DNA of 64,000 bases from Stenotrophomonas sp. (GCA_032112995.1 DAMCTY010000004.1:27335-91334); one strand, 5' to 3'; positions 1,829 through 56,672 are shown, numbered from the stretch's first letter. Translations and numbers: made by a program. Notes: generated from the letters alone by a model not told the origin.

Positions 1829-1896
1829 GCAACCAGTCCTCCTGAAACAAGCCGTATGGCGGCCATGCCGAAAGACGCGTGCAGCTGCAACGTCAT

Positions 1897-3521: not shown

Positions 3522-3529
3522 GGCAACAA

Positions 3530-27795: not shown

Positions 27796-29598
<1,803 letters not shown>

Positions 29599-29622: not shown

Positions 29623-31260
29623 TTACCAGCGTGCGCTGATGCGGAAGTCGGCGCGTACGTTGTCCTGATCCTTCAGCACCTTGTCCAAAGGATGCCCAAG
29701 ATCCAGGCTGTAACTGTAACGCTTGGCGAACTGGCCGTTCAGGCCCATGCCCACGCTGCTCAGGCTGGCAGATGCCGGGAAATCGCCATGCACCTGACCG
29801 CGGTCATAGAACACGTAGACATCATGCGCCTGCCGATAAGGCCGGTGCAGTTCCACACTGCCGTAGTAGCCGCGTACGCCGGACAGGGCACCACGCACGT
29901 AACCACGAACGCTGCCAATGCCACCCACCTGGAACAGGTTGCCCGAAGGCAGGAAATCGCCGTTGCTCAGCTGCCAACCCAACTGCGCACGATACAGGAA
30001 CCCGCTGGCCCCCAAGCGCTGGGTCCAACCGGTTGTGCCGTTGGCGACTGTGAAGCTACGCCCCTGCTTCAGGGCTTCATCTGTACGTATCCGCGAAATG
30101 CCCTGGTAGAACGTCCAATCGTAGCCATCATTGCGATAGCCCGTGTTGACGCCAACCGTGGCGACCGTGGAGTTTGTTTCCGACACGCGGACGTCCGCGA
30201 TGTCCGAGGTGGAATTGCTGCGCGAGATGCTGGCCACCGTGGACAGCAACCAGTTCTGGGTGGCGACCCAAGGCTGGGTATAGTCCAGGCCGTAGTTGGT
30301 TGATTCCCCGGTGATGTCGAGATCGCGGTATGCGCCATCGATGATGTTGATCTGGTTGCGGGAAACACTTACGCCCAAGCGTCCGTTGCGCTTGTTGACG
30401 ATGCCCGAGTACGCCACCCGTCCTTCCAGGCCGCCGCGCGAATAGGCTACCGAGCCGGACAGAAGGTCGTTGAGCCCTGCCAGGCCCCAGAACTGTCCCT
30501 GCACGCCAAAGCGCTCACGACCTGTGCTTTCCACGCCTGAGTTGTCAACGAAAACACCCCAGTTGTGGCGGTCGGGGGACCGCGCCATCAGCACGATATC
30601 GGTCTGCCCCGCAGCCTCGCCCGGCCGCAGCAATGCACGCACCTGCATGTCGCTGGTGCGGTTCAGGTATACCAGATCGTCGCGCAGTTGGTCTGCCTGC
30701 ACCACACCGCCGGCTTCCTGCTTGACACGCCGCAGCACAAACCGCTCTGGAACCCTACCCTCGCCCTCCCCGGTCACCAGCAATCTGCCAAGGCGCCCCT
30801 CCAGCAGGGTGACCACCACGGTACCCCCGGATAGATCCTGCTGCCGCAGAAGTGCTTTGGCAGTAGTCACGCCCTTGGCCTGGTAGGCCGCATTCACCTC
30901 CCCCACCAGCGCATCCAGCTCGGCCATGCTTACCTGCCGCCCCGCGTAATGGCTACGCACAAGCGCCAGCGTCTGCGTATCCAACAGTTCTGACGTCGGC
31001 TCGAAGCGCACGTCCTGAAGGAGGAAGCTCACACCCTCCGCCTTGGCATCGGCCGCCGGTGCCTCCTGCGGCACCGCCTGCAGCGGATCGATGACCGGCT
31101 TGCTCGGTTGCAACGGCTGGCGCTGCTCGTAGTAATCATCGATGCGCTGCGTGGTCTGCCCGCCATCGGTCGGAACCGATTGGGCCATGGCCATGCAGGG
31201 CAGCAGCGCGCCGCCGATCAGAAGCAGGCTTCGATACATCTTCAAATCCCCATGTTTCAT
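29623..31260 (-). CDS. ShlB/FhaC/HecB-type two-partner-secretion outer-membrane transporter (TpsB)
   Basis: Signal peptide (MYRSLLLIGGALLPCMAMAQ), POTRA-like region (LLQDVRFEPTSELL..., VVVTLLEGRLGRLLVTG), and a beta-barrel with the L6 motif FQVGGIGSVRGY and a terminal ...RISARW. The ATG at 31260 overlaps the TpsA stop (TGATG). The ATG at 31239 is an alternative; the track start at 31263 is TTG. Confidence 0.9.
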   Translation of the reverse strand: MKHGDLKMYRSLLLIGGALLPCMAMAQSVPTDGGQTTQRIDDYYEQRQPLQPSKPVIDPLQAVPQEAPAADAKAEGVSFLLQDVRFEPTSELLDTQTLALVRSHYAGRQVSMAELDALVGEVNAAYQAKGVTTAKALLRQQDLSGGTVVVTLLEGRLGRLLVTGEGEGRVPERFVLRRVKQEAGGVVQADQLRDDLVYLNRTSDMQVRALLRPGEAAGQTDIVLMARSPDRHNWGVFVDNSGVESTGRERFGVQGQFWGLAGLNDLLSGSVAYSRGGLEGRVAYSGIVNKRNGRLGVSVSRNQINIIDGAYRDLDITGESTNYGLDYTQPWVATQNWLLSTVASISRSNSTSDIADVRVSETNSTVATVGVNTGYRNDGYDWTFYQGISRIRTDEALKQGRSFTVANGTTGWTQRLGASGFLYRAQLGWQLSNGDFLPSGNLFQVGGIGSVRGYVRGALSGVRGYYGSVELHRPYRQAHDVYVFYDRGQVHGDFPASASLSSVGMGLNGQFAKRYSYSLDLGHPLDKVLKDQDNVRADFRISARW

Positions 31261-34200
31261 CAATTGGGTGCCCCCAGGTTGAGCGCATCCCTGTCCGACG
31301 TGATGACGTCCCCACCGAGGTCGATATCCAGACGCAATTCGGGCGACCGGTCTTCGTAGGCGGGGTCAAGTTGCAACATGCGCCCCATGTAACGCAGGGC
31401 GGCTTCACCGAGATAATTCATGTTGCTGTCGATGTGCTGGTTGTTGTAGTTCGGGCTTGTGATTCGGAACCCATCGTTGAAGCGAACGACGTAGGCATCG
31501 GTATCGAGGTACACACCATCTGCCGACAGGCGGAAGTTGCGGCTGGGCTGCATCAACTGCACATCGTATGGGCGCAACAGCGGGCTGTTGTTGTCCATCA
31601 ACAACTGCATCTGCGGCGTCCGCAGCGTCATGGTGTTTCCGATGTAGCCATTACCAACAGCAACCTTGCCTGCACTCGATGCCAGGTAGGCATCCACCGC
31701 GCCGAGCTGGTCGATCAGCCACGCATCGCGGGGATCAACCTCGACAATCACCTTCCGCGCTACGCCATTGTGATAGCCCGTCAACGTGGTCGTCAGCGGC
31801 CCCGTGCCGTTGGACGACTGCGCCACCTTGGCATCAATCATGTCGGCGGCCAGGCTCAGGCGGGTAGCAACGACGCCTTGCGACAGGCTCAGCTGATCGC
31901 GTGCGGCCAAGCTACCCGATGCGGCCGTCAGCAAACCACCCGTGAGCGATCCGCCCTGTGCATCCATGCTGGCAATCGTGCCAGCCTGCACCCGGTCAAA
32001 CACAATGCTGCCGCCGGAGATGATGGACTGCACTCCACCACTGTGGCCGTCTCCCACAGAAACGTCACTACCGGCCACCAGATCAACATCGCGACCGGCC
32101 ACATAGGCGCCCCAAGCCTGCTTGGCGCCACTGTTACCCACGATATCGACACCAGCGGTTGCGCTGCCGATGTCGATGGCGCCAGCCGCGCCGACCTGCA
32201 ACGAATCACCTGCGTTGGCCGTACCGCCGACCACATCGCTGCCACGGGAGGTCAAAGCCAGGTTGTTGCCTGCCTGTAGCGTATTGAATACAAGCGCGGC
32301 AGTAGATGCCATCTCGACATTGCAACCTGCCATCAACGCGCCGATGGCAATCGTGCCGCCAGCATCGCCGGTGAAGTTGCAGCCTGCCGTTACCTCATCG
32401 GCCTTCAGGTCCTTGCCGGCCACCCAATTGCCATTGGTCCCGATATGCGCCGTGCCCACATCGATGCTCTGGTGCGCATGCAAATTCATGGCGCCAGCGG
32501 TCGATGCCCGGATCATCGTCACGTTGCCGCCGGCCGTGGCCGACAGATCCCCTTCACCGTCGAAGGTGGTCACCGTGGTGTTACCAGCACTGGTCAGCAC
32601 GCTGTTGCCGGTCACGGTCAGCGTGTTGGCGGTCAGGTTATTGCCGGCATTCACCGCCAGCGCCTTGCCAACCACCGCCGTGCCCAGCACCACGTCCGAC
32701 TGTCCATCCAGCGTGGCGTTGCCGGTGACGTTGGCAGTAGCGATGGACAGCGTGTCCACCGCATCGGCCACCAGGTCGCTGCCAGCGCTGAGCTGCTGCA
32801 CATCCAGCGTGCTGCCCGAGGACAGCGTCATGCTGCTGCCGCTGTGCAACGTCGTGGCGGCCAGCGCCGCAGCCGACGTCACATCCAGCGTGCCCTGCGC
32901 CGACAGGCGGCCCAGCGTGCTGCTGCCCGTGCTGGCCAGGGTGGCGTTGCCGCCGACCGTGCCATCGTCCAGCTGCAGGTTGCCACCGGCCCTCAGCGCG
33001 GCGTTGCCATCCACCAGTGCAGTGGTCACGGCCATGTCACTGCCGCTGTCCAGCGAGGCGTTGCCGCCCACGTCCAGCGTATCCACCGTCATCGTCGTGC
33101 CAGCGGTTGCCGTGGCATCGCCGATAACTGCCAACGAGCCGATGGTGCTGCTGCCGGTGCTGGCCAGGGTGGCGTTGCCGCCGACCGTGCCGTCATCCAG
33201 CTGCAGGTTGCCGCCGGCCCTCAGCGCGGCGTTGCCATCCACCAGTGCAGTGGTCACGGCCATGTCACTGCCGCTGTCCAGCGAGGCGTTGCCGCCCACG
33301 TCCAGCGTATCCACCGTCATCGTCGTGCCAGCGGTTGCCGTGGTATCGCCGATAACTGCCAACGAGCCGATGGTGCTGCTTCCGGTGCTGGCCAAGGTGG
33401 CGTTGCCGCCGACCGTGCCGTCATCCAACTGCAGGTTGCCGCCGGCCGTGGTCGACAGGTCCCCTTCACCGTCAAAGGTGGTCACCGTGTTGTTGCCAGC
33501 ACTGGTCAGCACGCTGTTGCCGGTCACGGTCAGCGTGTTGGCGGTCAGGTTATTGCCCGCATTCACGGCCAGCGCCTTGCCGACCACCGCCGTGCCCAGC
33601 ACCACGTCCGACTGCCCGTCCAGCGTGGCATTGCCGGTGACGTTGGCAGTAGCGATGGACAGCGTGTCCACCGCATCGGCCACCAGGTCGCTGCCAGCGC
33701 TGAGCTGCTGCACATCCAGCGTGCTGCCCGAGGACAGCGTCATGCTGCTGCCGCTGTGCAACGTCGTGGCGGCCAGCGCCGCAGCCGAGGTCACGTCCAG
33801 CGTGCCCTGTGCCGACAGGCGGCCCAGCGTGCTGCTGCCCGCGCTGGCCAGGGTAGCGTTGCCGCCCACCGTGCCATCGTCCAGCTGCAGGTTGCCACCG
33901 GCCTTCAGCGCGGCGTTACCATCCACCAGTGCAGTGGTCACGGTCATGTCACTGCCGCTGTCCAGCGAGGCGTTGCCGCCCACGTCCAGCGTATCCACCG
34001 TCATCGTCGTGCCAGCGGTTGCCGTGGCATCGCCGATAACTGCCAACGAGCCGATGGTGCTGCTGCCGGTGCTGGCCAGGGTGGCGTTGCCGCCTACCGT
34101 GCCGTCATCCAGCTGCAGGTTGCCGCCGGCCGTGGCCGACAGATCCCCATCACCATCGAAGGTGGTCACCGCGGTGTTGCCAGCACTGGTCAGCACGCTG

Positions 34201-37200
34201 TTGCCGGTCACGGTCAGCGTGTTGGCGGTCAGGTTATTACCGGCATTCACCGCCAGCGCCTTGCCGACCACCGCCGTGCCCAGCACCACGTCCGACTGCC
34301 CGTCCAGCGTGGCATTGCCGGTGACGTTGGCAGTAGCGATGGACAGCGTGTCCACCGCATCGGCCACCAGGTCGCTGCCAGCGCTGAGCTGCTGCACATC
34401 CAGCGTGCTGCCCGAGGACAGCGTCATGCTGCTGCCGCTGTGCAACGTCGTGGCGGCCAGCGCCGCAACCGACGTCACGTCCAGCGTGCCCTGCGCCGAC
34501 AGGCGGCCCAGTGTGCTGCCGCCGGTGCTGGCCAAGGTGGCGTTGCCGCCTACCGTGCCGTCGTCGAGCTGCAGGTTGCCACCGGCTTTCAGCGCGGCAT
34601 TGCCATCCACCAGTGCGGTGGTCACGGCCATGTCACTGCCGCTGTCCAGCGAAGCATTGCCGCCCACGTCCAGCGTATCCACCATCATCGTCGTGCCAGC
34701 GGTTGCCGTGGCATCGCCGAGCACTGCCAACGAGCCGATGGTGCTGCTGCCGGTGCTGGCCAAGGTGGCGTTGCCGCCCACCGTGCCATCGTTCAGCTGC
34801 AGGTTGCCGCCGGCCCGCAGCGCGGCGTTGCCATCCACCAGTGCGGTGGTCACGGTCATGTCATTGCCGCTGTCCAGCGCGGCGTTGCCGCCCACGTCCA
34901 GCGTATCCACTGTCATCGTCGCGCCAGCGGTTGCCGAGGCATCGCCGAGCACGGCCAACGAGCCGATGGTGCTGCTGCCCGTGCTGGCCAGGGTGGCGTT
35001 GCCGCCCACCGTGGCATCGTCCAGCTGCAGGTTGCCGCCGGCCGTGGCCGACAGATCCCCTTCACCGTCAAAGGTAGTCACCGTGGTGTTACCAGCACTG
35101 GTCAGCACGCTGTTGCCGGTCACGCTCAGCGTGTTGGCGGTCAGGTTATTGCCGGCATTCACCGCCAGCGCCTTGCCGACCATCGCCGTGCCCAGCACCA
35201 CGTCCTGCTGCCCGTCCAGCGTGGCATTGCCGGTGACGTTGGCAGTAGCGATGGACAGCGTGTCCACCGCATCGGCCACCAGGTCGCTGCCAGCGCTGAG
35301 CTGCTGCACATCCAGCGTGCTGCCCGAGGACAGCGTCATGCTGCTGCCGCTGTGCAACGTCGTGGCGGCCAGCGCCGCAGCCGACGTCACGTCCAGCGTG
35401 CCCTGTGCCGACAGGCGGCCCAGCGTGCTGCTGCCGGTGCTGGCCAAGGTGGCGTTGCCGCCCACCGTGCCGTCATCCAACTGCAGGTTGCCGCCGGCCG
35501 TGGCCGACAGATCCCCATCACCGTCGAAGGTGATCACCGTGGTGTTGCCAGCACTGGTCAGCACGCTGTTGCCGGTCACGGTCAGCGCGTTGGCGGTCAG
35601 GTCATTGCCGGCATTCACCGCCAGCGCCTTGCCAACCACCGCCGTGCCCAGCACCACGTCCGACTGTCCATCCAGCGTGGCGTTGCCGGTGACGTTGGCA
35701 GTAGCGATGGACAGCGTGTCCACCGCATCGGCCACCAGGTCGCTGCCAGCGCTGAGCTGCTGCACATCCAGCGTGCTGCCCGAGGACAGCGTCATGCTGC
35801 TGCCGCTGTGCAACGTAGTGGCGGCCAGCGCCGCAGCCGACGTCACGTCCAGCGTGCCCTGCGCCGACAGGCGGCCCAGCGTGCTGCTGCCCGTGCTTGC
35901 CAGGGTAGCGTTGCCGCCCACCGTGCCATCGTTCAGCTGCAGGTTGCCACCGGCCTTCAGCGCGGCGTTGTCATCCACCAGTGCAGTGGTCACGGTCATG
36001 TCACTGCCGCTGTCCAGCGAGGCGTTGCCGCCCACGTCCAGCGTATCCACCGTCATCGTCGTGCCAGCGGTTGCCGTGGCATCACCGATAACTGCCAACG
36101 AGCCGATGGTGCTGCTGCCCGTACTGGCCAGGGTGGCGTCGCCGCCCACCGTGGCATCGTCCATCTGCAGGTTGCCACCGGCCGTGGCCGACAGATCCCC
36201 TTCACCGTCGAAGGTGATCACCGTGGTGTTGCCAGCACTGGTCAGCACGCTGTTGCCGGTCACCGTCAGCGTGTTGGCGGTCAGGTTACTGCCGGCATTC
36301 ACCGCCAGCGCCTTGCCGACCACCGCCGTGCCCAGCACCACGTCCGACTGTCCATCCAGCGTGGCGTTGCCGGTGACGTTGGCAGTAGCGATGGACAGCG
36401 TGTCCACCGCATCGGCCACCAGGTCGCTGCCAGCGCTGAGCTGCTGCACATCCAGCGTGCTGCCCGAGGACAGCGTCATGCTGCTGCCGCTGTGCAACGT
36501 AGTGGCGGCCAGCGCCGCAGCCGACGTCACGTCCAGCGTGCCCTGCGCCGACAGGCGGCCCAGCGTGCTGCTGCCCGTGCTTGCCAGGGTAGCGTTGCCG
36601 CCCACCGTGCCATCGTTCAGCTGCAGGTCGCCACCGGCCTTCAGCGCGGCGTCGCCGCCCACATCCAGCGTATCCACCGTCATCCTCGCGCCAGCGGTCG
36701 CCGTGGCATCGCCGAGCACAGCCAACGAGCCGATGGTGCTGCTGCCGATGCTGGCCAGGACGGCGTTACCGCCTACTGTGCCGTCATCCAGATGCAGGTT
36801 GCCACCGGCCGTCAGCGAGGCGTTGCCGCCCACGTCCAGCGTATCCACCATCATCGTCGTGCCAGCGGTTGCCGTGGCATCGCCGAGCACGGCCAACGAG
36901 CCGATGGTGCTGGCGCCCGTACTGGTAAGGGTAGCGTTGCCGCCTACCACAATCGTATCGGCATCCAAGTCAGCTGTCGTTGTCACCGACAGATCGCCAC
37001 CACTGGTAATGTGGCCTGCCTGCAACGAAACGGCATCTACGACCGCATCTGCACCCGAGATCAACTCGTCGGCGACCAGATTGCCCGAGCTGGACAGAAC
37101 AAGATCTCCCGCCAAGGCATCCAACGTGCTGATGTCTGCACCATTCGGGAAGCTCAGGTAAATGCCGCCAGCGGCGCTGCGCACCAACGCCAACCTCCCA

Positions 37201-40200
37201 ACATCCACGACGACAGGATCGCTGACCAGGCCTACGCCGTTGCCCGCCAACATCTGCGCGCTGACATTGGCACCTCCGGCCACGTTCACCACCGCATCGC
37301 CGTTGCCACGAATGGCGCCAGCTGCATTCAGATCAAGTTGATTGCCCGCTTCACTGCCGCTGACGGCAAGTCGGCCAATGGCAATATCCTTGCCCGACCG
37401 AATCGACACGATCTTGCCAGCGGTGAGGCTGCTCCCGGCCCCCATTGCGTAGTCACCGGCATCAATCAAAACCTGGCTACCCGCTTCCACTACTGCCCCG
37501 GCTCCAATATGGGCAGCCTGCACGGAAAGCAGGCGCAGCACCTCATCCACCTGCGCAGAGCCAAGGCTCAGCTTCTTGCCTGCATTCAGCTGCGCTGACG
37601 CAGCGCGCGTGATCTCACCAACCGCAACATCCCCGTTGGGGGCGCTTACGCTCAAATCGCCAACAGCATCAACCGTTGCGATGTCGACGCCGGTGTATCC
37701 AGTAACGGTGACATCGTCACCCCCTTCAAGCACATCCGCCGTCACTCGGCCCAGGCTGGAGAGCAAACGCAGCTCGCCCCCGGCGGTGATGGTACCGATG
37801 GGCATGTCCGTCTTGCTCGACAACAGCACGCTGCCACCGGCATCAGCCGACAATTGGCCACCGGCGATGATGCGCACGGCAAGGCTTTCACCATTGCTGG
37901 ACTCGTCCCGGATATCACCACTGACCGTCAGCTGGATATCGCGACCGGTGAGGACCGCCACGTCCTTCAGGTAGGAAAGAAGGCCACCGCCCGCAACCGT
38001 CAACACCAGATCCTGGTTGGCATTGACCAGGCCGACACGCAAGTCACCCGCAACCTGCTCAAGCCTTGCATGGTCACCCGCATTTGCAAGCAACAGTGTT
38101 CCATTCACCTGCACACGCAATGGCTGCGTGTCGGTACCGGTGATGCTGCGCAATGCCGAAATGCTGAGGTCCTTGCCGACGCGCAGCGTCGTAGCCGTGT
38201 TACCCGCGACATCGGTGATATTCCCATCGCTGCCGATACGCGCCGACCCGCCGCTACTGAAATGCTTGAATGCCAACGATGAGATCCCGTAAAGGAACGC
38301 ATCCCTGCCAATCGTCGCATCAACACTTCCCTTGGCGTCGATGACCAGCGGCGAATTACTGTTGATCCGCAGCCTGTCAACCGCTGCACCATCACGAACC
38401 TGCTGTGCAGTCAGCACCTTGCCTGTGGCATCGAGCATTTCGACATCACCGGGCGTCGTTGCCAGGCGCATGGCCAGCGCGGTCTCGTCGCTGACATTTC
38501 CATTTTTCAGATCGGCCAGGCTGACGGTGTACTGCTTTTCAAGACGCCCCAGATCCTTGCTCGCGATCAGCGTGATATCGCGTCCCAATACCACGGGATC
38601 CATATTGAGTGCTGACCCGGCGGAAGGCTCCAATGCATTTGCATTGAATATATGCCGCAGCTGATCTTCGTCCCAGTAGGAATCCGTAGCCAGCCCAGCC
38701 AGTATCTGCGCCCTGCGTGCATCTGCAGGACTATTGGAAATATCCGTCAGGCTGTAGCGGTAGTCCTTGTCGTATGACGCAAACGCACCTTCCTGGGCCC
38801 AGTCGCTGCCAAACGCGTCAACGAACACGGCTTCCAGCCGGGCGTAGCGGGCCGCGAGATAGCTCACAACCCCTGCATCATCCAGGCTGCGCCCAGCATC
38901 CATCTCCGCCAGCGAACGGAACAGCGCAATGCCATTCGCACCAGGAACGTAACTGCCGTTGACCACGCCACCCAGTGCCTTCAACTGGTAGTACTCGGCG
39001 TAGCCGGCATCCACCTGGTTCTGATAACTCAAGATGGACTGCTGATCGGCACCTTGGCCCTTGAACAGTTTGAGGTTGTCACGCAGACCCGCCAGTTGGT
39101 CTTCCGAGAGGAAGCTCACATCACCACGCAGCGCCGCATTGAATATGGAGCCTGACGATGCCTGCAACAGTACGTTGCCGGTGGCGGATTCGACCCGGTT
39201 CACCCAGAAATCGCCCGCCGTGTCGTGCAGCCCGATATTGCCATTGGCATACGCCGTGACCAGCCCACCTTCTATCGAAGCATCATTACGCAGGGTTTCC
39301 ACCGCGCGAATCGTCATCACCGAACTGCCGTTGCCGCCGATGGCACCGTTTGCGCTGCGCAGGTCGATATTGCGGCCAACAATCGCCGTACCGGTAGCGA
39401 AGGCACTTGTGATGTTGCCGCGGGCATGCAACCACACGTCGCCAATCCTGCTGCCACGCTGTGCGTTGAGCGACACCTTGGCATCAGAGTCGACATTCAG
39501 CGCGATATCGCCCCCTGCGCTGGCAATGATGTTCCCTGCGGCAACGGTCTTACCCTTGTTGTCCAGATAAGAAACTATCTGGATATCCAGCGGGCTGCTG
39601 CCCACATCCGGCTTGGTCCCGGCAATGGTGCCTATGGTCCGGCCAGCGGACAGGCTCAGCTCGTTGGTAATGATCCTGGCGAATGGCGACGTGCTTTCGA
39701 TATCACCATTGACACTGGTCAGGAACGTCTTTCCGTCGGTGTTCTTCAACACACCGTTGATACGGATCGTCTCACCCGAATCCACGTCCAACAGACCGGC
39801 ATCATTGGTCTTGAACTGGATGGCGATTGGGTTGTCAGCCTTGGCCCTGTTGCTGACAACAAGCGTCCCTGACGTCGGAAATTCGAGATCCCAGTAGGTT
39901 CGCCATGTGCCACCGTCGTCGAACTGGTTCTTCGACGGGAATCCATAGTTGTACCTGCAGCCGTTGCTGTTCTTGCCGCCTTCGCAACGGTAGTTCACCC
40001 CCCAACCAGATCTCCGGGTGTCAAAACTGCCCCTGGTTACCGTCGATTCAAAAACCTTTCCACCAAGGCTGCTGCCGGTACTCGAATATGTCACGCCTGA
40101 CGTTTGCCACTGCTGGCCGTTCTCTACAACCCTTCCGCCAGCATCGATCCAATACCAGTTATCCGCGGTGCCAACACCCTTGTCGTTGAAGGTGACATTC

Positions 40201-43200
40201 CGCTTGATGCGCGCCGTCTGCGTCCACGACGCCACCATGCCGGACCTGGGTGCGTAGGCGTAGCTGCTCGCATCAGCAAGCTTCGTTACCCCAGCCGACT
40301 CCCAGTCTGCGGTATTGATCGCCCCCTGGTAGGCATTGAGCGAACCGTTCGTGTCTTTCACATACCACGTTGTCTTGTTCTGCTCCCTGTCGCGGATGGT
40401 GATCTTGCCCTCCGCACCGGTACCCACGGTGATATCACCCAATTGCAGGCCCATATCCGCCAGCTGGTTGTCGATGACAACCGACCCCTTGCCGCTGATG
40501 ACGTTCAGTGCACCGCTGGTGGAGGTACTGACAATACGGCCGTCCAGGGTGATGGAACCGCCGCCCTTTGCGTAGATATCGGGGACGACAAACTGGTTCC
40601 TGGCCGGGTCGAATTTCAACGCAATCTTCGTCGAAGACGACGAATTGGCCCTCACGAAGCTTTCGGGGACGTCAAACAGTCCAGTGCTTCTCGCCACCCG
40701 TTCGCCGTTCGCGTTTGTGTAGAAGAAACTTTCGACCCAACTGCGGAGCTCGCTGCTATTGCGGTCCAGAATGGCGGAATAGTCCACCGGGACGCCTGAC
40801 GTCAAGGGCACATTGACGTCAATCGTGGCGGCCTTGATGCTGATTCCGCCACCCGCCGTAACCCCCCCTGTACCGGTCTTGGGAACGGTCGAATTTGCCG
40901 CCGACGTCACCTGCGAAGGTTGGGTGGAGAAGGAAGCCACCAGCTCTCTGGCATTCACGACCGGCACATAGTTTGCAGATCCGGTGCTGTATTGTGACAC
41001 CTTGCCGCCGTCGTAGAACAAGCCCTTCAGGTCCGCCTGGGTGCAGTCCTTGTCACCAATCCGATAGCGGCAGGCACCATAGATATAGAGGCTCCCATAG
41101 CCATTGTTGTTGGTGCCCTTGTCGGCGCCTCGATAGAGCAGGTAGTCCGTCAGGGTCTGACCGTTGCGGGCAGCCGCATCCTTGTAGAGGTAGGTGGCAA
41201 TGTAGGCAGCAGCATCGTCCGCATTGGTGATGCCGGCAGCCACGCTCACCCGGTTCCACAACGTGCTTACCAGTGCGCCGCTCCAGTTGCCGGTACCGAG
41301 GTTGTAGACCACGTCTCCGTTCGGAATGTCGACCGAAAGCGACTCAACCTGCTGGGCGCCCGCACCATAGAAGCTGCCCATTGCATTGAAGATTTTCAGC
41401 GCCGCGCCCCTGGCGATGATATCGCCCGCGCCGACGATGGCTGATGCAGCCCCCACGTTGCTGATGGTGACCTTCGCGCCGCCCTGGCCCCTGTCCTCGG
41501 TCACCCGGATGCCTTGGGGAGTGTTGCTCAGGCCGGTGTACAGAACATTGCCACCACTGTAGTCCGGCATCACGATATCGCCAGCCAACAGCAGGTTGTC
41601 CGCGCTGTTGTTGGTGATGCTGATACTCGGCGAGCCCTTGGCAGTTATCGAACCGCTGCCGCTGATGTTGTTTCCGTACAGAATGACGTCGCCACCACCA
41701 GCAAACAGGTCACCAATGACCCAGGTATTGGTGGCCTTGTCAGATGCAACGTCGAAGTCCGTGGAACCGGAGTCATTGAACGCCTTCTTCAGTGCTGCGC
41801 TGCTATCGCGCCATGCCTCGAATTCAAGCAGGTCGCCGCCGCCGGCATCCTTTGTCAACTGGCCATTGCCATCTATGGTGATGTTGAGCTTGCTGTAGCG
41901 CCCGGCCACCACCGTTCCATCGACGATCACATCCCCGGTGTTCGTACCCGAGGTCTTATTGTCACGCACCGTAACCGGGATGAAACCGATCTGGTAGCCC
42001 GTGGCCGAGCCGTCCGCATTGCGGAACACATCATTGCCATAAGCACCCAGCGACACGAATGCGCCACTGAGCAGCTTGCTGTTCTGGGCAAGCGCCGTTC
42101 GAGCAGCACTGTCCACCGTGGAGCGCGCCGAAGAATCCGGAATGGCTACCAGGCCCTTGCTATACCCCAGGGCCACCGCGTTGCCAGCGATCCGCGAGCC
42201 GTTGCCATTCATCCTATCCATGCCAGCGGAGACGTAGGCGTTGTGCAGGGACTCAAGGCTCGCCCCTTCACCCACCTTGACATCCTGGTCCACCTTCAAA
42301 TTGACAGCCGCGTCCGCCTTGCCTACCGCAGCCAGGATGCCCCAGGTATTGACCAGTGCATTGGCACCCACATCGGCCTTGGCATAGGTACCGACGTTGA
42401 GCATGTAATTGCTCTGCAGCTTGGCGTTGGTACCAATAGTGACCTTGTTCACCAGCGTCGCATCGGCCTTGGCCTTGACGACCGCAACGTTGATCGCGCC
42501 ACCGGTGGTCAGACCCGCACGATCATCCGTGTTCGCGTTGGTAGCCGCCACGATATCCAAACCAACGGCATCGCTCCCGGTCGGAGTGCCGCTGGCGTAA
42601 AGCTGGGCGCCGTTGCCAATATCAACAGCACTGCTGCCGGCCAGTATCGTGGAGACCTGGGAGGCACTGCCGGTCAGGACGCCGCCGCCGGCGGCACTGG
42701 CGGCGAGCTTGCCGACGAGAACACTGTCGATATTGTTTTCGGTAGCCAGCCTGATGGAACTGTCCGAGGCAATCCGGGCCTTCTCGCCCACGCTCAGGAT
42801 GACGTCGGCCTGGACGTCATTCTCAGCGTTCGCACCGCTGGCGTTGAGTACGCCCGCACCGGTGCTGTCCGCGCTGGCGCCATATTTGGTGGAGTGCGTC
42901 GCAGTCGCCACAAGCTTGGACACATCCCAGTCAGCCAGGTCCCCGATGGCTACATCCGTTGTGCTCTTGGTTACCGTCCGGGCCAGCGATGCATTGCCGG
43001 CAATCAAGCCGCCAGTGCCCGCCGTGGCATCGGCGGTGTTCTTGTCCTCACCGCGTGCATTGAGCGTGACGGCCCCGGAAATCAGCCGAGTAGCGTCACC
43101 CACCCCTGCATGCACAGTGGAGGCGGATTCGGCGGTGGCCTTCACCACGCCAGCAGCCAGCAACCCGCCCACGCTGACGCCCGTGGCATCAGCGTTCTGG

Positions 43201-46200: not shown

Positions 46201-49200
46201 CCCGCCAGCGAGTCGATGCTGCGCTCATCACTGGCGCTGACGGACACGTCTGCGTCGTCGTTGCGCACGGTGCTGTCCGAAAGCAGCGCCGTTGTATCCG
46301 AAGAGATCAGGTTGGTGGTCACGCTACCGGCAACGCCTACGTTGCCACCGGCGGCACCCGAAGCGGCGATGGTCCGGATCAGGCTTTCGTTACCGGCAAC
46401 AATCTCGAGTTTCGACGCCCCGTCAAGTGCAGAACCGACGACAATCGCCGCGGTACGGCCGCCAATATCATTGACGCTGCTTGCGACGCCAACGCCCACC
46501 TTGCCGCCAGCACCCAGCGCACCACCGAGCGAATAGGCCGCGCCCTTGGTCTGGGCATTCACATGCACATCGCCTGTCACCCCGGCGCCATGCGCGCGGA
46601 CTCCCTCGATACGGGCCTCCGTCGCACCATCCTTGATGATATTGGTGGCGTTGCTTGCCGCGATGGCCGCATCGCCGGCAGCGGCACCGGCGATGGCCAG
46701 GGTCTTGGTGATGGCGTCGGAATCCGCCCTCACTGCGAGCTGCTCGGACACCTCCAATGCCGAGCCATCAATGGCTGCAGCGGTGGTGTCCTTGATGGTC
46801 GCCACGTTGATTGCGGCGCCAATCGCTGCGTTGCCGGTGGTGCCCGCAACCGCACCAGACAACGTGTAGATACGCGAATCGTTGTCCGCCCCAAGCAGCA
46901 GATTCTTTGCTTCCAGCACGCCGCCGTTGAGCGTGGCCTGCGCGGTGTTGCCGATCTCACTCCAGCCCACCGAGCCCTGTACGGCGACATTGCCAGCAAA
47001 GCCGCCAGCCACCGCACCAGACAGGATCTTGGCATTGTTGGCCGCGGAGATCGCGGCATCATCCTGTACTTCCAGCAGCGCATCCTGTGCATTGGCAACC
47101 GTTGTGTTGCCAATGTCGTTGATGGTCAGTGCAGCCCCCACTGCCACCTTGTTGCCTGCGGTCAATGCACCGGCAAGTGAGCCGATGAACGAGTCGTCAC
47201 TGGCATCCAGGCGGACGTCGCGCGCCGCGAGCTCGGCACTGGATCCCGCGCCCTGGGTATCGTGCCCGACGTTTACGGTGGTCTGGTTCTGGATGGCGTT
47301 GTAGGACGCACTGCCGACGCCGGTGAATTTTCCGCTACTGGCACCTACTCCCACGCTGACAGCGATGATCTGCGCGTTGTCGCGGGCAGCCAGATTGATG
47401 TCCCCGTCGTCAGCTCGGATGCTGGCGTCATCCACGGTCACACTGTGGCTGTTCTTGATGGTGTTGTAGGCGAAGGCAACGCCCGCATTGTTGTCACTGG
47501 CCTGCATCATCCCGGCAACGGCAATGATCGAGCTCTTCGCATTGCCATCGCGGCCAATGGCATCCACCTTGGTATCGTCATTGTCGTCGGCGTTGGCTCC
47601 TACGTCCGTATCTGCCAGGCCAGAACCACAGTAGTCAGCACTACCGCCGGTTCCATTGTCTCCATTGCAGTTGTTGCCAGCGCTGCCAAGATCGTCATCG
47701 CTGGCCGTACCTGCATAGGCAGTGAGCGTACCCGCAATATCGATATCGGCGCCGCCAACGATGCGGGCCTCGGTGGTGTTGCCCACCTGGTTGACGAGGA
47801 CAGAACCTGCCAAGCCAATACCGCTGTCACTCTTGGAGGCACCACCAGCCGCAGCTGCGGCCACGATCCGCGAGGCATCTGCGGCGCGCACCGTGACGTT
47901 GTTAAGTTTTTGAACACTGCTGCCATCGATGGCAGCAGTGGTTACATCCTGAACTTCCGCATAGGTTACGGCGGCGCCCACGCCGGCGCGGCCGCCAAAG
48001 TAGAAGGCGCCGCCGCCGTTGGCTATTTTCGACTCGTTGACCGCCAAGATGTCGAGGTCACCAGCAGCCCCCTGCATGCCGGTCAGGGTTCCGCCCTGGA
48101 GCACGGCTTGCGTGCTGTTCTTCGACATGCCCACGGTCGCCGACACCGCCACTGCCGCAGCCTTGGCCTGATCGGTGGATGCATTGACGCCAACGCCCAA
48201 ACCTACGTTGACCTGCTCGCTCTCGTTGCGGGCGGTCAGCACCACATCCTTGGCATCGACGATGGTGGAATCGGTGATCCCAGCCCTCGTGGTGTTCTGT
48301 ATATCGGCGTAGGCGACGCCGCCGGCAATGGAAGCACTGGCTTCCTGCTGCCCCACCACAACCGACAATGCCCCGCTGATGCTTACCAGCAGGGTCTTGT
48401 TGAGGGCAGCCACGTCCAGCTTCAGGCCATTATTGGAGTGATCCTTGATGTTTGCGCTGCTGATATCTGCGGTGGTCTTCTGACGGGCACGGTTGACAGT
48501 TGCGCTACCTGACACCGCAACGCCGAACTTGGGCTTCTGCTCCCCGCCGGCCTGCCCTCCCTGTCCACCGCCATCCTCAGGCTTTCCCGAGCCCAGCAGC
48601 GACTTTGCCTTGTCGAAGTACTTGCCCAAGCCTTCATCGCCGGCCAGGCCAGCCTTCTCGGCCATTCCCTCCAGCTGCCCCACCTTGCCGGTAGCGCGGG
48701 ATTTCAGCTTGTCCAGGAAGCTCGGGTTGTCCGCGCTGCGCTTCTGCGCCGCCGCTTCGCTATCCCCCTGGCCGTACTTGTTGTCCTTGCTGCTGACCAC
48801 GCTGCCAGCTGCGGCAACGGCACCCGACAGGCCTTCGCTGTTCGCCGTCACTTCGAGCACGTCCGTACTGACCGAGCCCTGCTGTGTGCCCGCAGCGCCG
48901 GTAGCGAAGCCATCGGGGATCTGCCCGATGAAGGCGCGTGTATCCGTATCCATCTGCTGGTAGGCCACACTCAAACCCACCGATACGCTCTTGCTCATGG
49001 CTACTGCGCCGGCCACCGACCAGACAAACAGATCCTCGTCGGCACCTATAGCCACCGATTTCGCCACCAGCGAGGCCTTGTTGCTCACCCCGGCCAGCGT
49101 ATGGCTGTCCAGGTCCATGGCAGACGCCGTGCCATTGAGATTGAAGCTACCGCCCTGGCCGCTCTGCAAAGCCAGCGACACCAGGGTTTCCTTGTTGACC

Positions 49201-53086: not shown

Positions 53087-55834
53087 TCAACCGGCCGCCT
53101 TGGCCAACAGCAGCAGACCTTCCACCTTGCGCAACTCTGGCGAACCCTCGACCTGATGGCGCCTGAGCACCACTGCGGCGCGTGCCAACTCTTCCTTGGC
53201 GGCTGCCGGATCGCCAAATTGCAGCAGGGTTTCGGCCAGGCCCAGCCGGTAACCCGCTGTACTCAGGTTGTCCTCACCCAGCAGATGGCTTGCGTACTCC
53301 ACAGCCTGCTGGCGCAGGCGCAGGGCTTGGGCTCCTTCCTGCCGCCGTTGCGCCAATTCGGCGCGCACGCTGGGCAACTCGGCACGCAACTCCGCGGGCA
53401 TTTGGCCGGGAATCTGCGCAAGCAGTTGCTGCGCCTCGTTCAGCCGCCCCTGACCGATCAGCCAGCGGATCCACAACAATCTGACCTCCAGGCGACCCGG
53501 GGCATCGGCAGGCAGTGCCGCGGCCAATCCCTGGTCAGCATGGGCGATGTGCCCCCCCGCTTCCTCGGCCCGACCCAACCGCATCAGGATGCGCCCCATG
53601 CCCGTCTCGGCGCGCAGCGCCGTGGGTGAACTCGCCCCCAACTGACTGCTGCGGATTGTCCAGGCCTGGCGGTACATCCGGTAGGCCTGCGGCAGATCAC
53701 CGCGCAGCTCATAAAGAGAGCCATGATTGAACAGCCCCATCGAGTATCCGACGGACGTTTCGCCATCAATCGCAGCACTCAAGCGTTGCCGTTCGCGGAA
53801 CTGCTGTTCGGCGGCATCAAGATCCCCCATGTCGACGTACAGATCGGCAAGCGCATCATGCTGGGCCAGCATGAAGCCATTCTTGGCACCATACAGCCCC
53901 AATGCCTGCTGCTGCCCACGCTGCAACAATGCCAAGGCCTCGTTGAACTTGCCCTGCTCACGAAGTATCTGCGCCAGGTGAAGTTCAACGGTCAGGCTCA
54001 TGCTGGTGCGTCGACCATGCAGGCCCGCAAGTACCTGACGAAAGGCCTTTTCAGCCTCAGGTTGGTGGCCCCAACGCAGGTACATGAGACCCTGGTTGTA
54101 AAGCAGCTCATGCAACCGACCATCTTCGGGAGACAGATGGGAGACGCCATACAGGCGCTGTGCCTGCTCGAAATCCTGTTCCGCCGCATCAAACCGCTGC
54201 TGGCTCACCAGCGCCAGCGCTCTTGCCGCATGCAGCTTCGCCCGCACATCGCCCACCTCCCGCGCGGAGCCCAGCAGGACCAAGCCACGATCCGCAAGCT
54301 GCTGGCCCTGCGCACCGTTGCCGGCAGAAGTTTTCAAACGCGACAGATTGGCCAACACCCCTGCAGCATCCACCGGCCGGGCAACATCCGCACGCATGAA
54401 GCCTTCATAAGCCTGCTGCAGATTGCGCTCGGCCTCCATCGCCATGCCGGAGTTCTGGTAAGCCTGCCCGAGCACGGACTGCATCCTCGCCAACTGCCCA
54501 GGTGCATCCCGCAATTCACTGCCCACCTGCAAGGCAGCCTTGTCCAGCAACTGACGCGAGCTGAGCTCCTCCTGGCCGCGTTCGGTGCGCAGGAACGGAT
54601 CGGCGGTCTCAAACACGCCAATCATGAAATTGCTGACCTGCTGTGCGATTGCCGCCTCTTCTCGCGCCTGCCGGCGGCTCTGCACCAGCCCAAGGATGAA
54701 CAGCAGCAGCAGCGCAACCAGACCCAGGCCTGCGGCAAGTGCGCGCCAGTTGCGCCGCATGCGCTTGCCGAGCTGATACAGGCGCCCACCTGATCGTGCC
54801 ACCACCGCGCGCTTGTCCAGGTATCGGCGCAGATCGGCACGCAAGGCCTCCACCGAGCGATAGCGCTGCCTGGCATCCAACGCGCAGGCACGCGCCGCAA
54901 TGGCATCCAGATCACCCTTGAGATTTCTTCGCCACGCCAGGCCTTCGGCGGCGTTCTGGCTCGGCAACACCACCGGCACATCCACGTCCTGCGGCTCGCG
55001 CACGCATGGATGATCGGACAGCATCTCGACGAGCATCACGCCAAGGCTGTACACGTCACCCGCAGCACCCACTGTCTCACCACGGATCAACTCCGGGCTG
55101 GCATAGCTGGGTGTGCAATAGCCCGCGTCCGGCTTCGCGCGCGCCTCGTTGAGGATGCGGGCCAGGCCGAAATCCAGCAGTACCGGTTGGCCGCCAGGCA
55201 ACACCAGCACATTGGATGGCTTCAGGTCACAGTGCAGCACCAACTGCTCATGCGCGGCCTGTACCGTTGCGCATATCTCCAGAAACAGCAGTATGCGTTC
55301 ACGCAGCCCCAATCCACGCTGCTCGCACCAATTGTCCAGGCTGATGCCGTCGATGTACTCCATCACCAGATAGGGATGGCCCTCAGGCGTGGTGCCGCCG
55401 TCATAAAGCCGGGCAACATTGGGCAATTGCAGGTCTGCCAACACCTGCCGCTCCATACCCAAGCGTTCGACCTCGCCCTGGCCTGGCAGACCGTGCAGCA
55501 ACTTGATCGCGACCGTGCGCTGGTACAGACCATCGGCACGCTCAGCCTTGAACACCGTGCCCATGCCTCCCTGCGCAATACGCGCAGTCAGCCGCCACGG
55601 TCCAACCCGTTCGCCCACACCGAATTCCGGCGCCAGTGCCCGCGCCAATACCGTGTCCAGCCGGTTGCTGACCCTGCTCAGGCCCACGGTCTGTGAGCGC
55701 AGCAGCTGCAGCACCTCCTCGCGGATGTCCGCATCATCGCAAGCCGTTACCAGCGCCTGCTGCCATTGTTCACGCGGCAGCTCGCTGGTCGCATCGAACA
55801 GCTCCCTTACCTTGCGCCAGCGCTCCTCGGCCAT
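53087..55834 (-). CDS. membrane Ser/Thr protein kinase with large C-terminal TPR region
   Basis: ATG at 55834 (the track start at 55885 is GTG and overlaps the sigma gene). Hanks motifs: GGMGTVFKA, VAIKLL, HCDLKPSNVLV, DFGLA, YASPE. One TM (ALAAGLGLVALLLLFILGLV, ~54683-54745) followed by ~530 aa of TPR-like repeats. Confidence 0.88.
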   Translation of the reverse strand: MAEERWRKVRELFDATSELPREQWQQALVTACDDADIREEVLQLLRSQTVGLSRVSNRLDTVLARALAPEFGVGERVGPWRLTARIAQGGMGTVFKAERADGLYQRTVAIKLLHGLPGQGEVERLGMERQVLADLQLPNVARLYDGGTTPEGHPYLVMEYIDGISLDNWCEQRGLGLRERILLFLEICATVQAAHEQLVLHCDLKPSNVLVLPGGQPVLLDFGLARILNEARAKPDAGYCTPSYASPELIRGETVGAAGDVYSLGVMLVEMLSDHPCVREPQDVDVPVVLPSQNAAEGLAWRRNLKGDLDAIAARACALDARQRYRSVEALRADLRRYLDKRAVVARSGGRLYQLGKRMRRNWRALAAGLGLVALLLLFILGLVQSRRQAREEAAIAQQVSNFMIGVFETADPFLRTERGQEELSSRQLLDKAALQVGSELRDAPGQLARMQSVLGQAYQNSGMAMEAERNLQQAYEGFMRADVARPVDAAGVLANLSRLKTSAGNGAQGQQLADRGLVLLGSAREVGDVRAKLHAARALALVSQQRFDAAEQDFEQAQRLYGVSHLSPEDGRLHELLYNQGLMYLRWGHQPEAEKAFRQVLAGLHGRRTSMSLTVELHLAQILREQGKFNEALALLQRGQQQALGLYGAKNGFMLAQHDALADLYVDMGDLDAAEQQFRERQRLSAAIDGETSVGYSMGLFNHGSLYELRGDLPQAYRMYRQAWTIRSSQLGASSPTALRAETGMGRILMRLGRAEEAGGHIAHADQGLAAALPADAPGRLEVRLLWIRWLIGQGRLNEAQQLLAQIPGQMPAELRAELPSVRAELAQRRQEGAQALRLRQQAVEYASHLLGEDNLSTAGYRLGLAETLLQFGDPAAAKEELARAAVVLRRHQVEGSPELRKVEGLLLLAKAAG

Positions 55835-55860
55835 AGCCCCCCCCGATGCCAATCCCGCGG

Positions 55861-56454
55861 CTAACGCAGCTGCCGATTCAACCACGCCCGCGCGAAGCGC
55901 AGGTCACGGTCAACGGTTGGCGCGGACACGCCCAGCACCAGGGCGATCTCATCACGCTGCATGCCGCCGAAGTACGTCAGCTCGATCGTGCTCGCCGCAC
56001 GCGGCTCCATTTCGGCCAACTGATTCAACGCCTGGTGCAGGGCCAGCACGTCATAGCCGATATTGCTCTCTTCATAGGCCTGATCGGCGTGCGACAACGT
56101 CAGTTGCTCTACCCCGGCGCCGCGCTTGCCGGCAGCCCGGGCGCGCAGGTGGTCGACCAGCACCGACCGCATCTTCAGCGCGGCGATGGCCACGAAATGG
56201 GTGCGATCCTTGTACTCGGCGTCACTGCCGAGCAGGCGCATCAAGGACTCGTTGACCAGAGCTGCGGGCTGCAGGGTACCGTTGGTCTGCTGGGACAGAC
56301 GGTTGCGGGCAAGCTGCATCAGGTCCGAATACATGGCTTCGAACAAGTGCTCGCGCGCCTGCATGTCGCCTTGCTGCCAGCGATGCAGGAGTTGGGTGAT
56401 CTGCTGCCTGCTCAATGCTGCTCCCGCGTAACGGCCTGTGCCCCGTCCGGCCAA
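55861..56454 (-). CDS. ECF-type RNA polymerase sigma factor (Sigma70_ECF / kinase-associated type)
   Basis: Motifs: ITQLLHRWQQGD..A...L, HFVAIAALKMRSVLVDHLRARAAGKRG, and region 4 IALVLGVSAPTVDRDLRFARAWL. There is no in-frame ATG before ITQLL. Candidate starts are TTG at 56454 (track) or TTG at 56415, the latter preceded by GGGAG 5 nt upstream and preferred by me. Confidence 0.82.
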   Translation of the reverse strand: MAGRGTGRYAGAALSRQQITQLLHRWQQGDMQAREHLFEAMYSDLMQLARNRLSQQTNGTLQPAALVNESLMRLLGSDAEYKDRTHFVAIAALKMRSVLVDHLRARAAGKRGAGVEQLTLSHADQAYEESNIGYDVLALHQALNQLAEMEPRAASTIELTYFGGMQRDEIALVLGVSAPTVDRDLRFARAWLNRQLR

Positions 56455-56477
56455 CCGCGCCGGAACCTATCCAGCCA

Positions 56478-56506
56478 ATGGTAGGACCCTGACCTCTTAC
56501 TGCCAA
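56478..56506 (-). promoter_or_regulatory. sigma70-like promoter candidate for the ECF sigma gene
   Basis: On the minus strand: TTGGCA (56506-56501), 17-nt spacer, TACCAT (56483-56478). It lies between the tRNA terminator and the sigma start. Hexamer matches only. Confidence 0.3.
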
Positions 56507-56558
56507 CTGTACCTGCTGGCGTGCGGCGCGTGCGCGACAGCGCCCCCAAGGCGGCAAC

Positions 56559-56586
56559 AAAAAAGGCCCCGGATCGCTCCGGAGCC
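56559..56586 (-). terminator. rho-independent terminator of tRNA-Lys
   Basis: Minus-strand RNA: GGCUCCGG-AGCGAU-CCGGGGCC (8-bp stem including one G-U pair) followed by UUUUUUGUUG. It starts 10 nt after the tRNA CCA end. Confidence 0.8.
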
Positions 56587-56596
56587 TTTGCAGTAT

Positions 56597-56672
56597 TGGT
56601 GGGCCGTGAAGGATTCGAACCTTCGACCAAAAGATTAAAAGTCTTCTGCTCTACCGACTGAGCTAACGGCCC
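56597..56672 (-). tRNA. tRNA-Lys (anticodon UUU), CCA encoded
   Basis: Reverse complement: GGGCCGTTAGCTCAGTCGGTAGAGCAGAAGACTTTTAATCTTTTGGTCGAAGGTTCGAATCCTTCACGGCCCACCA. It folds as a 7-bp acceptor, a GCTC/GAGC D-stem, an anticodon loop CTTTTAA, a T-loop TTCGAAT and 76 nt total. Track ORF 56412..56678 across it is spurious. Confidence 0.95.

Follow-up and report, generated by a model that had tools for sequence, protein, structure and literature searches.

A candidate promoter linking a resident ECF43-like sigma factor and kinase to a mobile sapC–tpsA–tpsB adhesin cassette in Stenotrophomonas

The 64,000-nucleotide stretch of Stenotrophomonas sp. DNA analysed here (GCA_032112995.1 DAMCTY010000004.1:27335-91334; hereafter the window) carries, head to tail on the minus strand, genes for an extracytoplasmic function (ECF) sigma factor, a membrane Ser/Thr kinase, a SapC-family protein, a giant two-partner secretion (TPS) exoprotein (TpsA) and its transporter (TpsB). 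We consider it reasonably probable, from comparison of this locus with its relatives, that an ECF43-like sigma factor and a PknS-like kinase resident at the site activate a dedicated promoter which edges a mobile sapC–tpsA–tpsB cassette, with a CRP/Clp-type input being retained in this strain. The five genes had been described in a first-pass annotation of the window, and all were recovered with the boundaries it had drawn (Table 1), as were the gaps of 26 nt between the sigma stop and the kinase gene, 152 nt between kinase and sapC and 105 nt between sapC and tpsA, the convergent recQ gene with its stop 24 nt from that of tpsB, and the tRNA-Lys(UUU) and its terminator upstream of the sigma gene. 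Two starts had been offered for the sigma gene; 56415 (a TTG with a GGGAG ribosome-binding site) is favoured, whilst 56454 is less likely according to the alignment of orthologues.

SapC served as the anchor for scans of genome and metagenome collections, from which 171 loci (cited below by L numbers) were annotated with the window proteins; further Pfam-annotated contexts were sampled for intermediate SapC and kinase homologues. Alignment of 12 sapC upstream regions reveals two invariant blocks at a fixed spacing, TGATnG-N17-CGGT, with an otherwise variable spacer. A near-invariant GCTTTYC precedes the CGGT block (the window copy there is GCTTTTCC), and a T-rich tract and an AGGG block are conserved after the element. 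In the window the element begins 74 nt upstream of the sapC ATG; it lies 64–85 nt before sapC in each of the 13 loci of the clade (ten five-gene lineages and three unlinked cassettes nested among them), and is found in none of 14 distant SapC–TpsA loci that lack the sigma gene. The exact pattern has a single match in the window, against 0.57 expected; since so short a pattern is not rare by itself, the evidential weight lies in its position and conservation. Scored with a weight matrix, the 13 sites give 28–45 bits (window, 44.8) and, in leave-one-out tests, 16–41 bits. The best match outside the training set over 2 × 2.7 Mb scores 19 bits; it is located in Lysobacter capsici (L179), is intergenic, and stands upstream of a secreted M23 peptidase/BTRD1 gene, adjoining a paralogous sigma/kinase pair (kinase 42% identical). 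By its geometry, TGATnG-N17-CGGT is predicted to be an alternative-sigma promoter, and the resident sigma factor is likely to be the one that reads it. A sigma-54 interpretation of the same region was rejected, as GG and GC are wrongly spaced and the GG lacks conservation. The region of the L. capsici match (L179:15384-15874, minus strand) also holds, within the leader, a long REP-like inverted repeat (GGAGCCGGGATTAGGGATT...).

The arrangement of sigma factor, kinase, SapC and giant TpsA recurs in ten lineages, covering six upstream contexts and three genera (Stenotrophomonas, Luteimonas and Lysobacter). The upstream neighbour is queC/tRNA-Lys in the window, L093, L172 and L174, a peptidase S8 gene in L087, DUF1249 in L089 (Luteimonas sp. 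e5), an ABC-F gene in L090 and L096, and an M13 peptidase gene in L177 (Lysobacter ciconiae); the flank of L095 is unresolved. A neighbour-joining tree groups the SapCs of the five-gene loci in a single clade, and identities to the window drop in step across sigma, kinase and SapC, which argues that the four genes have been co-inherited through several relocations. The sigma-less loci L007, L092 and L094 nest within the five-gene SapC clade and are thus best regarded as secondary separations. SapC is identical in three Stenotrophomonas sp. metagenome-assembled genomes (MAGs) and several metagenomes that share the layout of the window. In one Stenotrophomonas lineage a DUF5694 gene lies on the opposite strand between queC/tRNA-Lys and the sigma gene (L174:2963-4060, L175:327-1382), showing that the tRNA side does receive small insertions.

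The boundaries of the variable unit are given by relatives which lack it. In Stenotrophomonas sp. NLF4-10 (L176) and in L180-182, the series tol-pal-queE-queC-sigma-kinase is followed directly by a convergent recQ, with no cassette; in blastn comparisons the window is collinear with a cassette-less relative up to the last kinase codons and then jumps to the 3′ end of recQ. The polymorphic segment comprises the sapC promoter and sapC–tpsA–tpsB (window ~29599-53013, ~23.4 kb), and because these relatives keep the pair abutting recQ, the sigma/kinase genes are resident and only the promoter and the three genes behind it variable. The first-pass annotation had raised the question whether recQ abuts tRNA-Lys/queC where the block is absent, and whether sigma/kinase, SapC and TpsAB co-occur; co-occurrence of sigma/kinase, SapC and TpsA was observed in the ten lineages, but recQ abuts the kinase gene rather than tRNA-Lys/queC.

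The sapC–tpsA–tpsB cassette is mobile. An identical SapC, preceded by a truncated phage-type integrase (Arm-DNA-bind_3 and Phage_int_M), occurs in two backgrounds, one after birA-coaX-SPOR (L183-186) and the other in a RepB/ParB and insertion-sequence (IS) fragment context (L187/188, the same as L092). The DNA that the window shares with the mobile cassette of L092 starts at ~53013, 5 nt before the TGAT block, and the mobile unit carries the element as its left edge. Three independent samples hold both a cassette-less queC-sigma-kinase-recQ locus and an unlinked cassette which retains the element (GCA_032061965.1, L181 and L184; JGI 3300011801, L180 and L185; SRR1749359, L182 and L186), which makes regulation in trans plausible. 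The block had been read in the first-pass annotation as a self-contained, kinase/ECF-controlled module with a SapC accessory: recurrent linkage and a clade-limited promoter element are consistent with the control that it proposed, but the module is not self-contained. The annotation had named as adverse to that view a sigma/kinase pair that persists at this site in genomes without SapC/TpsAB and whose regulon excludes them; such a pair does exist, but at least one of these genomes has an unlinked cassette with the same element. Near the unlinked chromosomal cassette there are also an Imm11 immunity gene and an X-Tfes XVIPCD-domain gene (L184:1-1138, L185, L186); the XVIPCD domain is a signature of type IV secretion antibacterial effectors.

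The sigma factor is a two-domain (sigma2 and sigma4) protein matching PF07638 (Sigma70_ECF; 151 bits, cutoff 21) and TIGR02999 (183 bits, cutoff 126), and profile searches found no anti-sigma domain in the five-gene block. Its sigma2.2 region reads TLQPAALVNE (QPAA), with no acidic residue at the four DAED/DxxD positions. The phospho-acceptor Thr of ECF43 factors, at motif position 3, is Ala in the window, L087, L093, L172, L174, L176, L177 and L180; the Thr is kept in L090/L096 (RPTV) and in the paralogues L178/L179 (RPTS, QATS), and its loss is therefore derived. The likeness to EcfP/PknT drawn in the first-pass annotation holds for the pairing of a sigma factor with a Ser/Thr kinase and no anti-sigma, but not for the phospho-threonine position. 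A T-x-S motif, LTLSHA, in the linker between sigma2 and sigma4 is conserved in all 15 sigma factors compared; with the usual sigma2.2 Thr replaced by Ala, the Thr/Ser of the linker is the likely switch site of the window sigma factor. Its equivalence to T106/S108 of EcfK is assumed from the location of the linker. The recognition helix of sigma4.2, PTV[D/E]RDLRFARAWL, is essentially invariant among the compared sigma factors, which fits a common −35 element.

For the kinase, the membrane location and the tetratricopeptide repeat (TPR) region of ~530 aa reported earlier were borne out by profile searches. The extended open reading frame (ORF) has an N-terminal extension of ~85 aa, a Pkinase domain (aa 100-343), one transmembrane (TM) helix (~362-388) and a periplasmic TPR domain of ~530 aa; the motifs VAIK, HCDLKPSN, DFG and SPE are present. 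An HCDLKPxN catalytic loop occurs in 10 of 11 kinase orthologues and paralogues, with HRD only in L089, and the kinase diverges much faster than the sigma factor (for example 65% versus 90% identity in L180). The pair appears to have a promoter of its own, since TTGGCA-N17-TACCAT before the sigma gene is the sole sigma-70-type match in 51.9-56.8 kb and is conserved in L093 (N17) and L087 (N18), with CATAAT in L090/L096. No copy of TGATnG-N17-CGGT is present at the sigma-gene promoter, nor was there any sign of autoregulation; the terminator of tRNA-Lys would insulate the sigma gene from upstream transcription.

A CRP/Clp-like box in the gap between kinase and sapC, pointed out earlier, matches at 9 of 10 positions (TGTGAACTGCGTCACG) and has phylogenetic support. 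With TGTGA-N6-TCACA at 8 or more of 10 positions upstream of SapC as the criterion, boxes are present in 9 of 14 sigma-less SapC–TpsA loci versus 4 of 134 control SapC loci, and in one of nine five-gene lineages, namely the window. The window box lies outside the DNA common with the mobile cassette. Given its frequency in the sigma-less loci and its near-absence from the five-gene lineages, CRP/Clp control looks ancestral for the SapC–TpsA operon and largely replaced in the sigma/kinase clade.

An unlikely, though not negligible, alternative is that the adjacency is historical, in which case the pair would control other genes, the cassette would be under CRP/Clp and an unrelated factor, and the element would be the site of another sigma or transcription factor shared by Stenotrophomonas, Luteimonas and Lysobacter. 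This would account for the persistence of sigma/kinase at a site without the cassette (L176, L180), for cassettes without adjacent regulators (L007, L092, L094), and for CRP/Clp boxes as the ancestral control of SapC–TpsA, and the distribution of the element could merely follow phylogeny. Nonetheless, linkage has been kept in six unrelated flanks and three genera, the top non-training match of the weight matrix adjoins a paralogous sigma/kinase pair, and the loss of the CRP/Clp box from most five-gene loci is what would be expected if another input had replaced it.

Several observations weigh against activation of sapC by the resident pair. L176 keeps sigma/kinase without a nearby cassette, and the pair may therefore have other or additional targets; conversely L007 and L094 (S. 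rhizophila group) bear the element without adjacent sigma/kinase. Both the element and the pair occur in one clade, so that their distribution is confounded by phylogeny. The L179 match is a single observation, ~215 nt from its gene, and a literature search found no published ECF43 promoter consensus for comparison. At the protein level, the canonical ECF43 phospho-threonine is missing from the window sigma factor (QPAA) and the kinase is of the non-RD (HCD) type, whilst the role ascribed to SapC is drawn from its genomic neighbourhood alone.

It is improbable that the element is instead a 5′-leader RNA element or operator which controls translation or stability of the sapC–tpsA mRNA. It does lie within ~75 nt of the start codon and is followed by the conserved T-rich tract and AGGG block, but conservation limited to two short blocks, with a fixed 17-nt spacing and a variable spacer, is promoter-like; moreover there is no Rfam match, no covarying helix was seen, and homology with the mobile cassette starts at the first block. 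Least tenable is the view, raised in the first-pass annotation, that all five genes make up a genomic island inserted at the 3′ end of tRNA-Lys: the block adjoins this tRNA, and GC content at third codon positions (GC3) is lowered in the kinase gene (0.735), tpsB (0.76) and most of tpsA (0.68-0.75) relative to ~0.85 in flanking genes, but cassette-less relatives keep sigma/kinase beside queC-tRNA-Lys with recQ abutting, the polymorphic segment runs from the kinase stop to the recQ stop and does not reach the tRNA, sigma (0.83) and sapC (0.825) have GC3 near that of the host, no repeat of 9 nt or more is shared between the tRNA-Lys region and either junction (including the proposed direct repeat of the tRNA 3′ end near recQ), and neither boundary repeats nor integrase-like sequence were found in the window.

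In the mechanism that we favour, in which the resident pair activates the cassette, an envelope or extracellular cue would be sensed at the periplasmic TPR domain and activate the kinase, which would phosphorylate the sigma factor, probably at the conserved Thr/Ser of the LTLSHA linker. The activated sigma factor would bring RNA polymerase to the sapC promoter, with the CRP/Clp-type site ~20 nt upstream providing a second input in this strain; the sigma/kinase genes themselves would be transcribed from their own housekeeping-type promoter. As there are no terminators between the genes, sapC, tpsA and tpsB are presumably co-transcribed, and the overlap of the tpsB ATG with the tpsA stop (TGATG) suggests that tpsA and tpsB are translationally coupled. 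Before export, SapC may act on the giant substrate or influence how it is expressed, whether by holding it, by targeting it or by modifying it enzymatically. TpsA would then cross the inner membrane via Sec, and TpsB would export it by way of the FxxPxG TPS domain, yielding a surface fibre of very great length.

SapC matches PF07277 over its full length (238.6 bits; model positions 1-218 of 220), in agreement with the earlier family assignment, and has no signal peptide or TM segment; by sequence it is a cytoplasmic protein. Its AlphaFold (AF2) model is of good confidence (pLDDT 87, pTM 0.81), and a fold search of the PDB with this model gave nothing above noise (best E 0.19), as a sequence-profile search of the PDB gave no match. 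An LktA-type TpsA after SapC is a widespread arrangement, being found in Stenotrophomonas, Dyella halodurans, Oleiagrimonas soli and various MAGs, and L168 has a variant order (canonical TpsA-TpsB-SapC-giant). In L081 (641-6528, a Bordetella MAG) and L083 (5967-17829, a Vicinamibacteraceae MAG) the genes after SapC encode a TolC-like OEP and then a giant DUF4347/RTX protein, which is a substrate for type I secretion. In Rhodanobacteraceae, some 100 SapC paralogues are surrounded by unrelated housekeeping genes, and their neighbours (dxs, HNH, GNAT, acyl-CoA dehydrogenase, occasionally OEP/AcrB) give no functional clue; adhesin-linked SapCs cluster apart from these orphan paralogues in the neighbour-joining tree. 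The gene neighbourhoods thus point to a real and conserved partnership of SapC with LktA-type TpsA genes. The founding SapC is that of the Campylobacter fetus sapCDEF genes, whose other products secrete S-layer proteins by the type I route (Pfam description; cited in PMC2938197), an arrangement which L081 and L083 resemble. The recurrent position of SapC at the head of operons for giants of two export routes suggests that it acts in the cytoplasm in a way linked to the substrate.

More widely, it is possible, and we put it forward only tentatively, that SapC serves in the cytoplasm as a factor dedicated to the biogenesis of giant repetitive surface proteins, irrespective of their export route (type Vb LktA-type fibres here and in ~25 other loci, type I DUF4347/RTX giants in L081/L083 and the C. 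fetus S-layer), with the operon of the present clade being placed, in addition, under a kinase-activated ECF sigma factor that has a linker-only phospho-switch and reads TGATnG-N17-CGGT. In four sigma-less SapC–TpsA loci from three genera a short-chain dehydrogenase gene lies directly upstream of SapC (L094:8070-9841, L007:7962-9735, L029:8562-9341, L034:9015-9860), with a LysR regulator alongside in L094 and a 302-aa ORF at the corresponding position in L007; the orientation of the dehydrogenase gene varies between loci and the association may be coincidence. A radical SAM gene precedes SapC in L083. A literature search found no paper joining SapC with two-partner secretion or adhesins; SapC has been noted in TonB-receptor/tryptophan-halogenase/JmjC neighbourhoods and predicted to be an enzyme (PMC2938197).

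The giant ORF of 6,937 codons had been assigned as a TPS exoprotein. A Pfam scan of the protein as two halves gave no TPS match, which is attributable to search sensitivity or to a composition filter; on its own, the N-terminus does match PF05860 (49 bits, cutoff 33.5), and NF012204 ('leukotoxin LktA family filamentous adhesin'; 122 bits, cutoff 60) confirms the assignment, the match to TIGR01901 (adhes_NPXG; 29.5 bits) being barely over its cutoff of 29.1. At least 15 stretches of LktA_tand_53 repeats (NF012206; 134 and 172 bits) lie within aa ~500-3400, a Sec signal peptide is visible ahead of the TPS domain, and FFVDPHG (FxxPxG) stands in place of the canonical NPNG. By these matches the ORF is a TpsA of a divergent LktA/FxxPxG subfamily, and it is about twice the size of Fusobacterium necrophorum LktA. 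TpsB, which had been called a ShlB/FhaC-type transporter, is an Omp85-type protein with a signal peptide and matches to ShlB (88 bits) and POTRA_2 (53 bits). A contact-dependent inhibition (CdiBAI) interpretation was rejected, as there is no VENN motif, no toxin family in the C-terminal 600 aa, and the gene order is A-B.

The lower GC of the tpsA core, reported earlier, is real, but the GC3 profile is a mosaic rather than uniform: codons 1-5000 have 0.68-0.75, codons 5001-6500 have 0.83-0.87 and the C-terminus has 0.73. The stretch with host-like values is also where a tandem array with a period of 228/456 nt lies (76/152-aa units; 66-83% matches by Tandem Repeats Finder, TRF), which suggests recent amplification in situ. 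Before the array, aa ~3400-5000 (~1,600 aa; window ~37000-41900) have the lowest GC and no family match. The gene is uncalled or overlaid by many spurious antisense ORFs in several public assemblies (L001:11738-20756, L175:6103-16083, L184:10817-20756), so that annotation easily overlooks it or breaks it up; in that of L172 it is split into products of 2785 and 2288 residues. The spacer between sapC and tpsA has GC-rich inverted repeats, no T-tract and, in the alignment, an invariant GGAG-N7-ATG; the repeat arms vary by locus yet stay complementary (GGCCGC/GCGGCC, GGCTGC/GCAGCC, GGCAAGG/CCTTGCC). An RNA element or attenuator in this spacer was rejected, since its fold z-score of −0.02 is no better than that of shuffled sequences and there is neither a terminator nor an Rfam family.

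Table 1. Features of the sigma/kinase–sapC–tpsA–tpsB locus and its neighbours; positions are counted from the first nucleotide of the window.
Feature	Position	Strand	Evidence or remark
tRNA-Lys(UUU)	56597..56672	-	ARAGORN; Rfam RF00005, 78 bits; upstream neighbour, outside the variable unit
Intrinsic terminator of tRNA-Lys	56562..56589	-	12-bp stem then T-run
Sigma-70-type promoter of the sigma-kinase pair, TTGGCA-N17-TACCAT (putative)	56478..56506	-	
ECF43-like sigma factor gene	55861..56415	-	PF07638, TIGR02999
PknS-like transmembrane Hanks Ser/Thr kinase gene	53087..55834	-	
CRP/Clp-type box, TGTGAACTGCGTCACG	53025..53040	-	9/10 match
Predicted ECF-dependent promoter, TGATAG-N17-CGGT	52982..53008	-	
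sapC, 251 aa	52179..52934	-	PF07277
sapC-tpsA spacer	52074..52178	-	GC-rich inverted repeats; GGAG-N7-ATG
tpsA, 6,937 codons	31260..52073	-	LktA-family filamentous exoprotein
TPS secretion domain, FxxPxG (LktA) type, aa ~81-237	51363..51833	-	NF012204, TIGR01901, PF05860
Tandem DNA array within tpsA	32917..36948	-	TRF
tpsB	29623..31260	-	ShlB, POTRA_2, signal peptide
recQ	27796..29598	+	Convergent neighbour; adjoins the kinase gene directly in cassette-less relatives

The locus bears on several wider questions. There are 343 Xanthomonadales ECF43 sigma/kinase representatives (PMC13147305), and almost no ECF43 pair has a defined target promoter or regulon; the locus offers a compact predicted pairing of sigma factor, promoter and operon, in which linked, unlinked and absent cassettes amount to natural 'experiments' and a variant of the phospho-switch without the sigma2.2 Thr is directly testable. 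SapC, which is widespread and without a fold relative, gains a testable context as the partner of giant secreted adhesins, and would, if the proposal is correct, found a new class of accessory proteins in secretion, one whose fold is unsolved. The movement of a 23-kb adhesin cassette as a single unit, starting exactly at its predicted promoter, bears on strain variation in the surface-fibre repertoires of Stenotrophomonas.

Kinase/ECF-controlled secretion is already known and the locus is not a categorically new system. The PknS/EcfK pair of X. citri (an ECF43 sigma factor and a Hanks kinase) controls a type VI secretion system (T6SS), with functional linker phosphosites at T106/S108 (PMC13147305; Bayer-Santos 2018 as cited there). 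Both pairs are from Xanthomonadales and consist of an adjacent PF07638-type ECF factor and kinase with no anti-sigma and a secretion-system locus alongside; both kinases have an N-terminal extension, a kinase domain, one TM helix and a periplasmic TPR domain, and both sigma factors have conserved hydroxyl residues in the sigma2–sigma4 linker, at positions assumed to correspond. They differ in that the predicted target in the window, instead of a T6SS, is a giant adhesin cassette of type Vb (TPS), and in that the TPR region of the window kinase is ~530 aa whereas PknS has three TPR repeats. In ECF43 factors the acidic DAED motif of sigma2.2 is lost (PMC8999054); the consensus is QTTA, with Thr at position 3 in 88% of members, and EcfK has QATE with T51 (PMC13147305), in contrast to QPAA in the window, which has no sigma2.2 phospho-acceptor. 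The ECF43 prototype is EcfP/PknT of Vibrio parahaemolyticus, EcfP being activated by phosphorylation of the second Thr of STTA (PMC8999054); the window sigma factor likewise lacks the acidic DAED and is paired with a Ser/Thr kinase, but has Ala at that position and is predicted to serve an adhesin cassette, unlike the EcfP regulon (polymyxin resistance).

On the secretion side, the window proteins resemble LktB/LktA of F. necrophorum (NF012204, NF012206) in their FxxPxG TPS domain, 53-residue tandem repeats and ShlB-type partner, and differ in the order tpsA then tpsB, the upstream sapC, the 76/152-aa array and the unannotated segment of ~1,600 aa. As in C. fetus sapCDEF, a SapC gene heads an operon for the export of very large surface proteins, although the route is two-partner secretion here and type I secretion there. 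The SapC proteins of the TonB-receptor/halogenase/JmjC neighbourhoods (PMC2938197) belong to the same Pfam family, but those partners are absent from the window locus. Finally, in contrast to EcfK, for which no target promoter has been published, a candidate target promoter can be defined for the window sigma factor.

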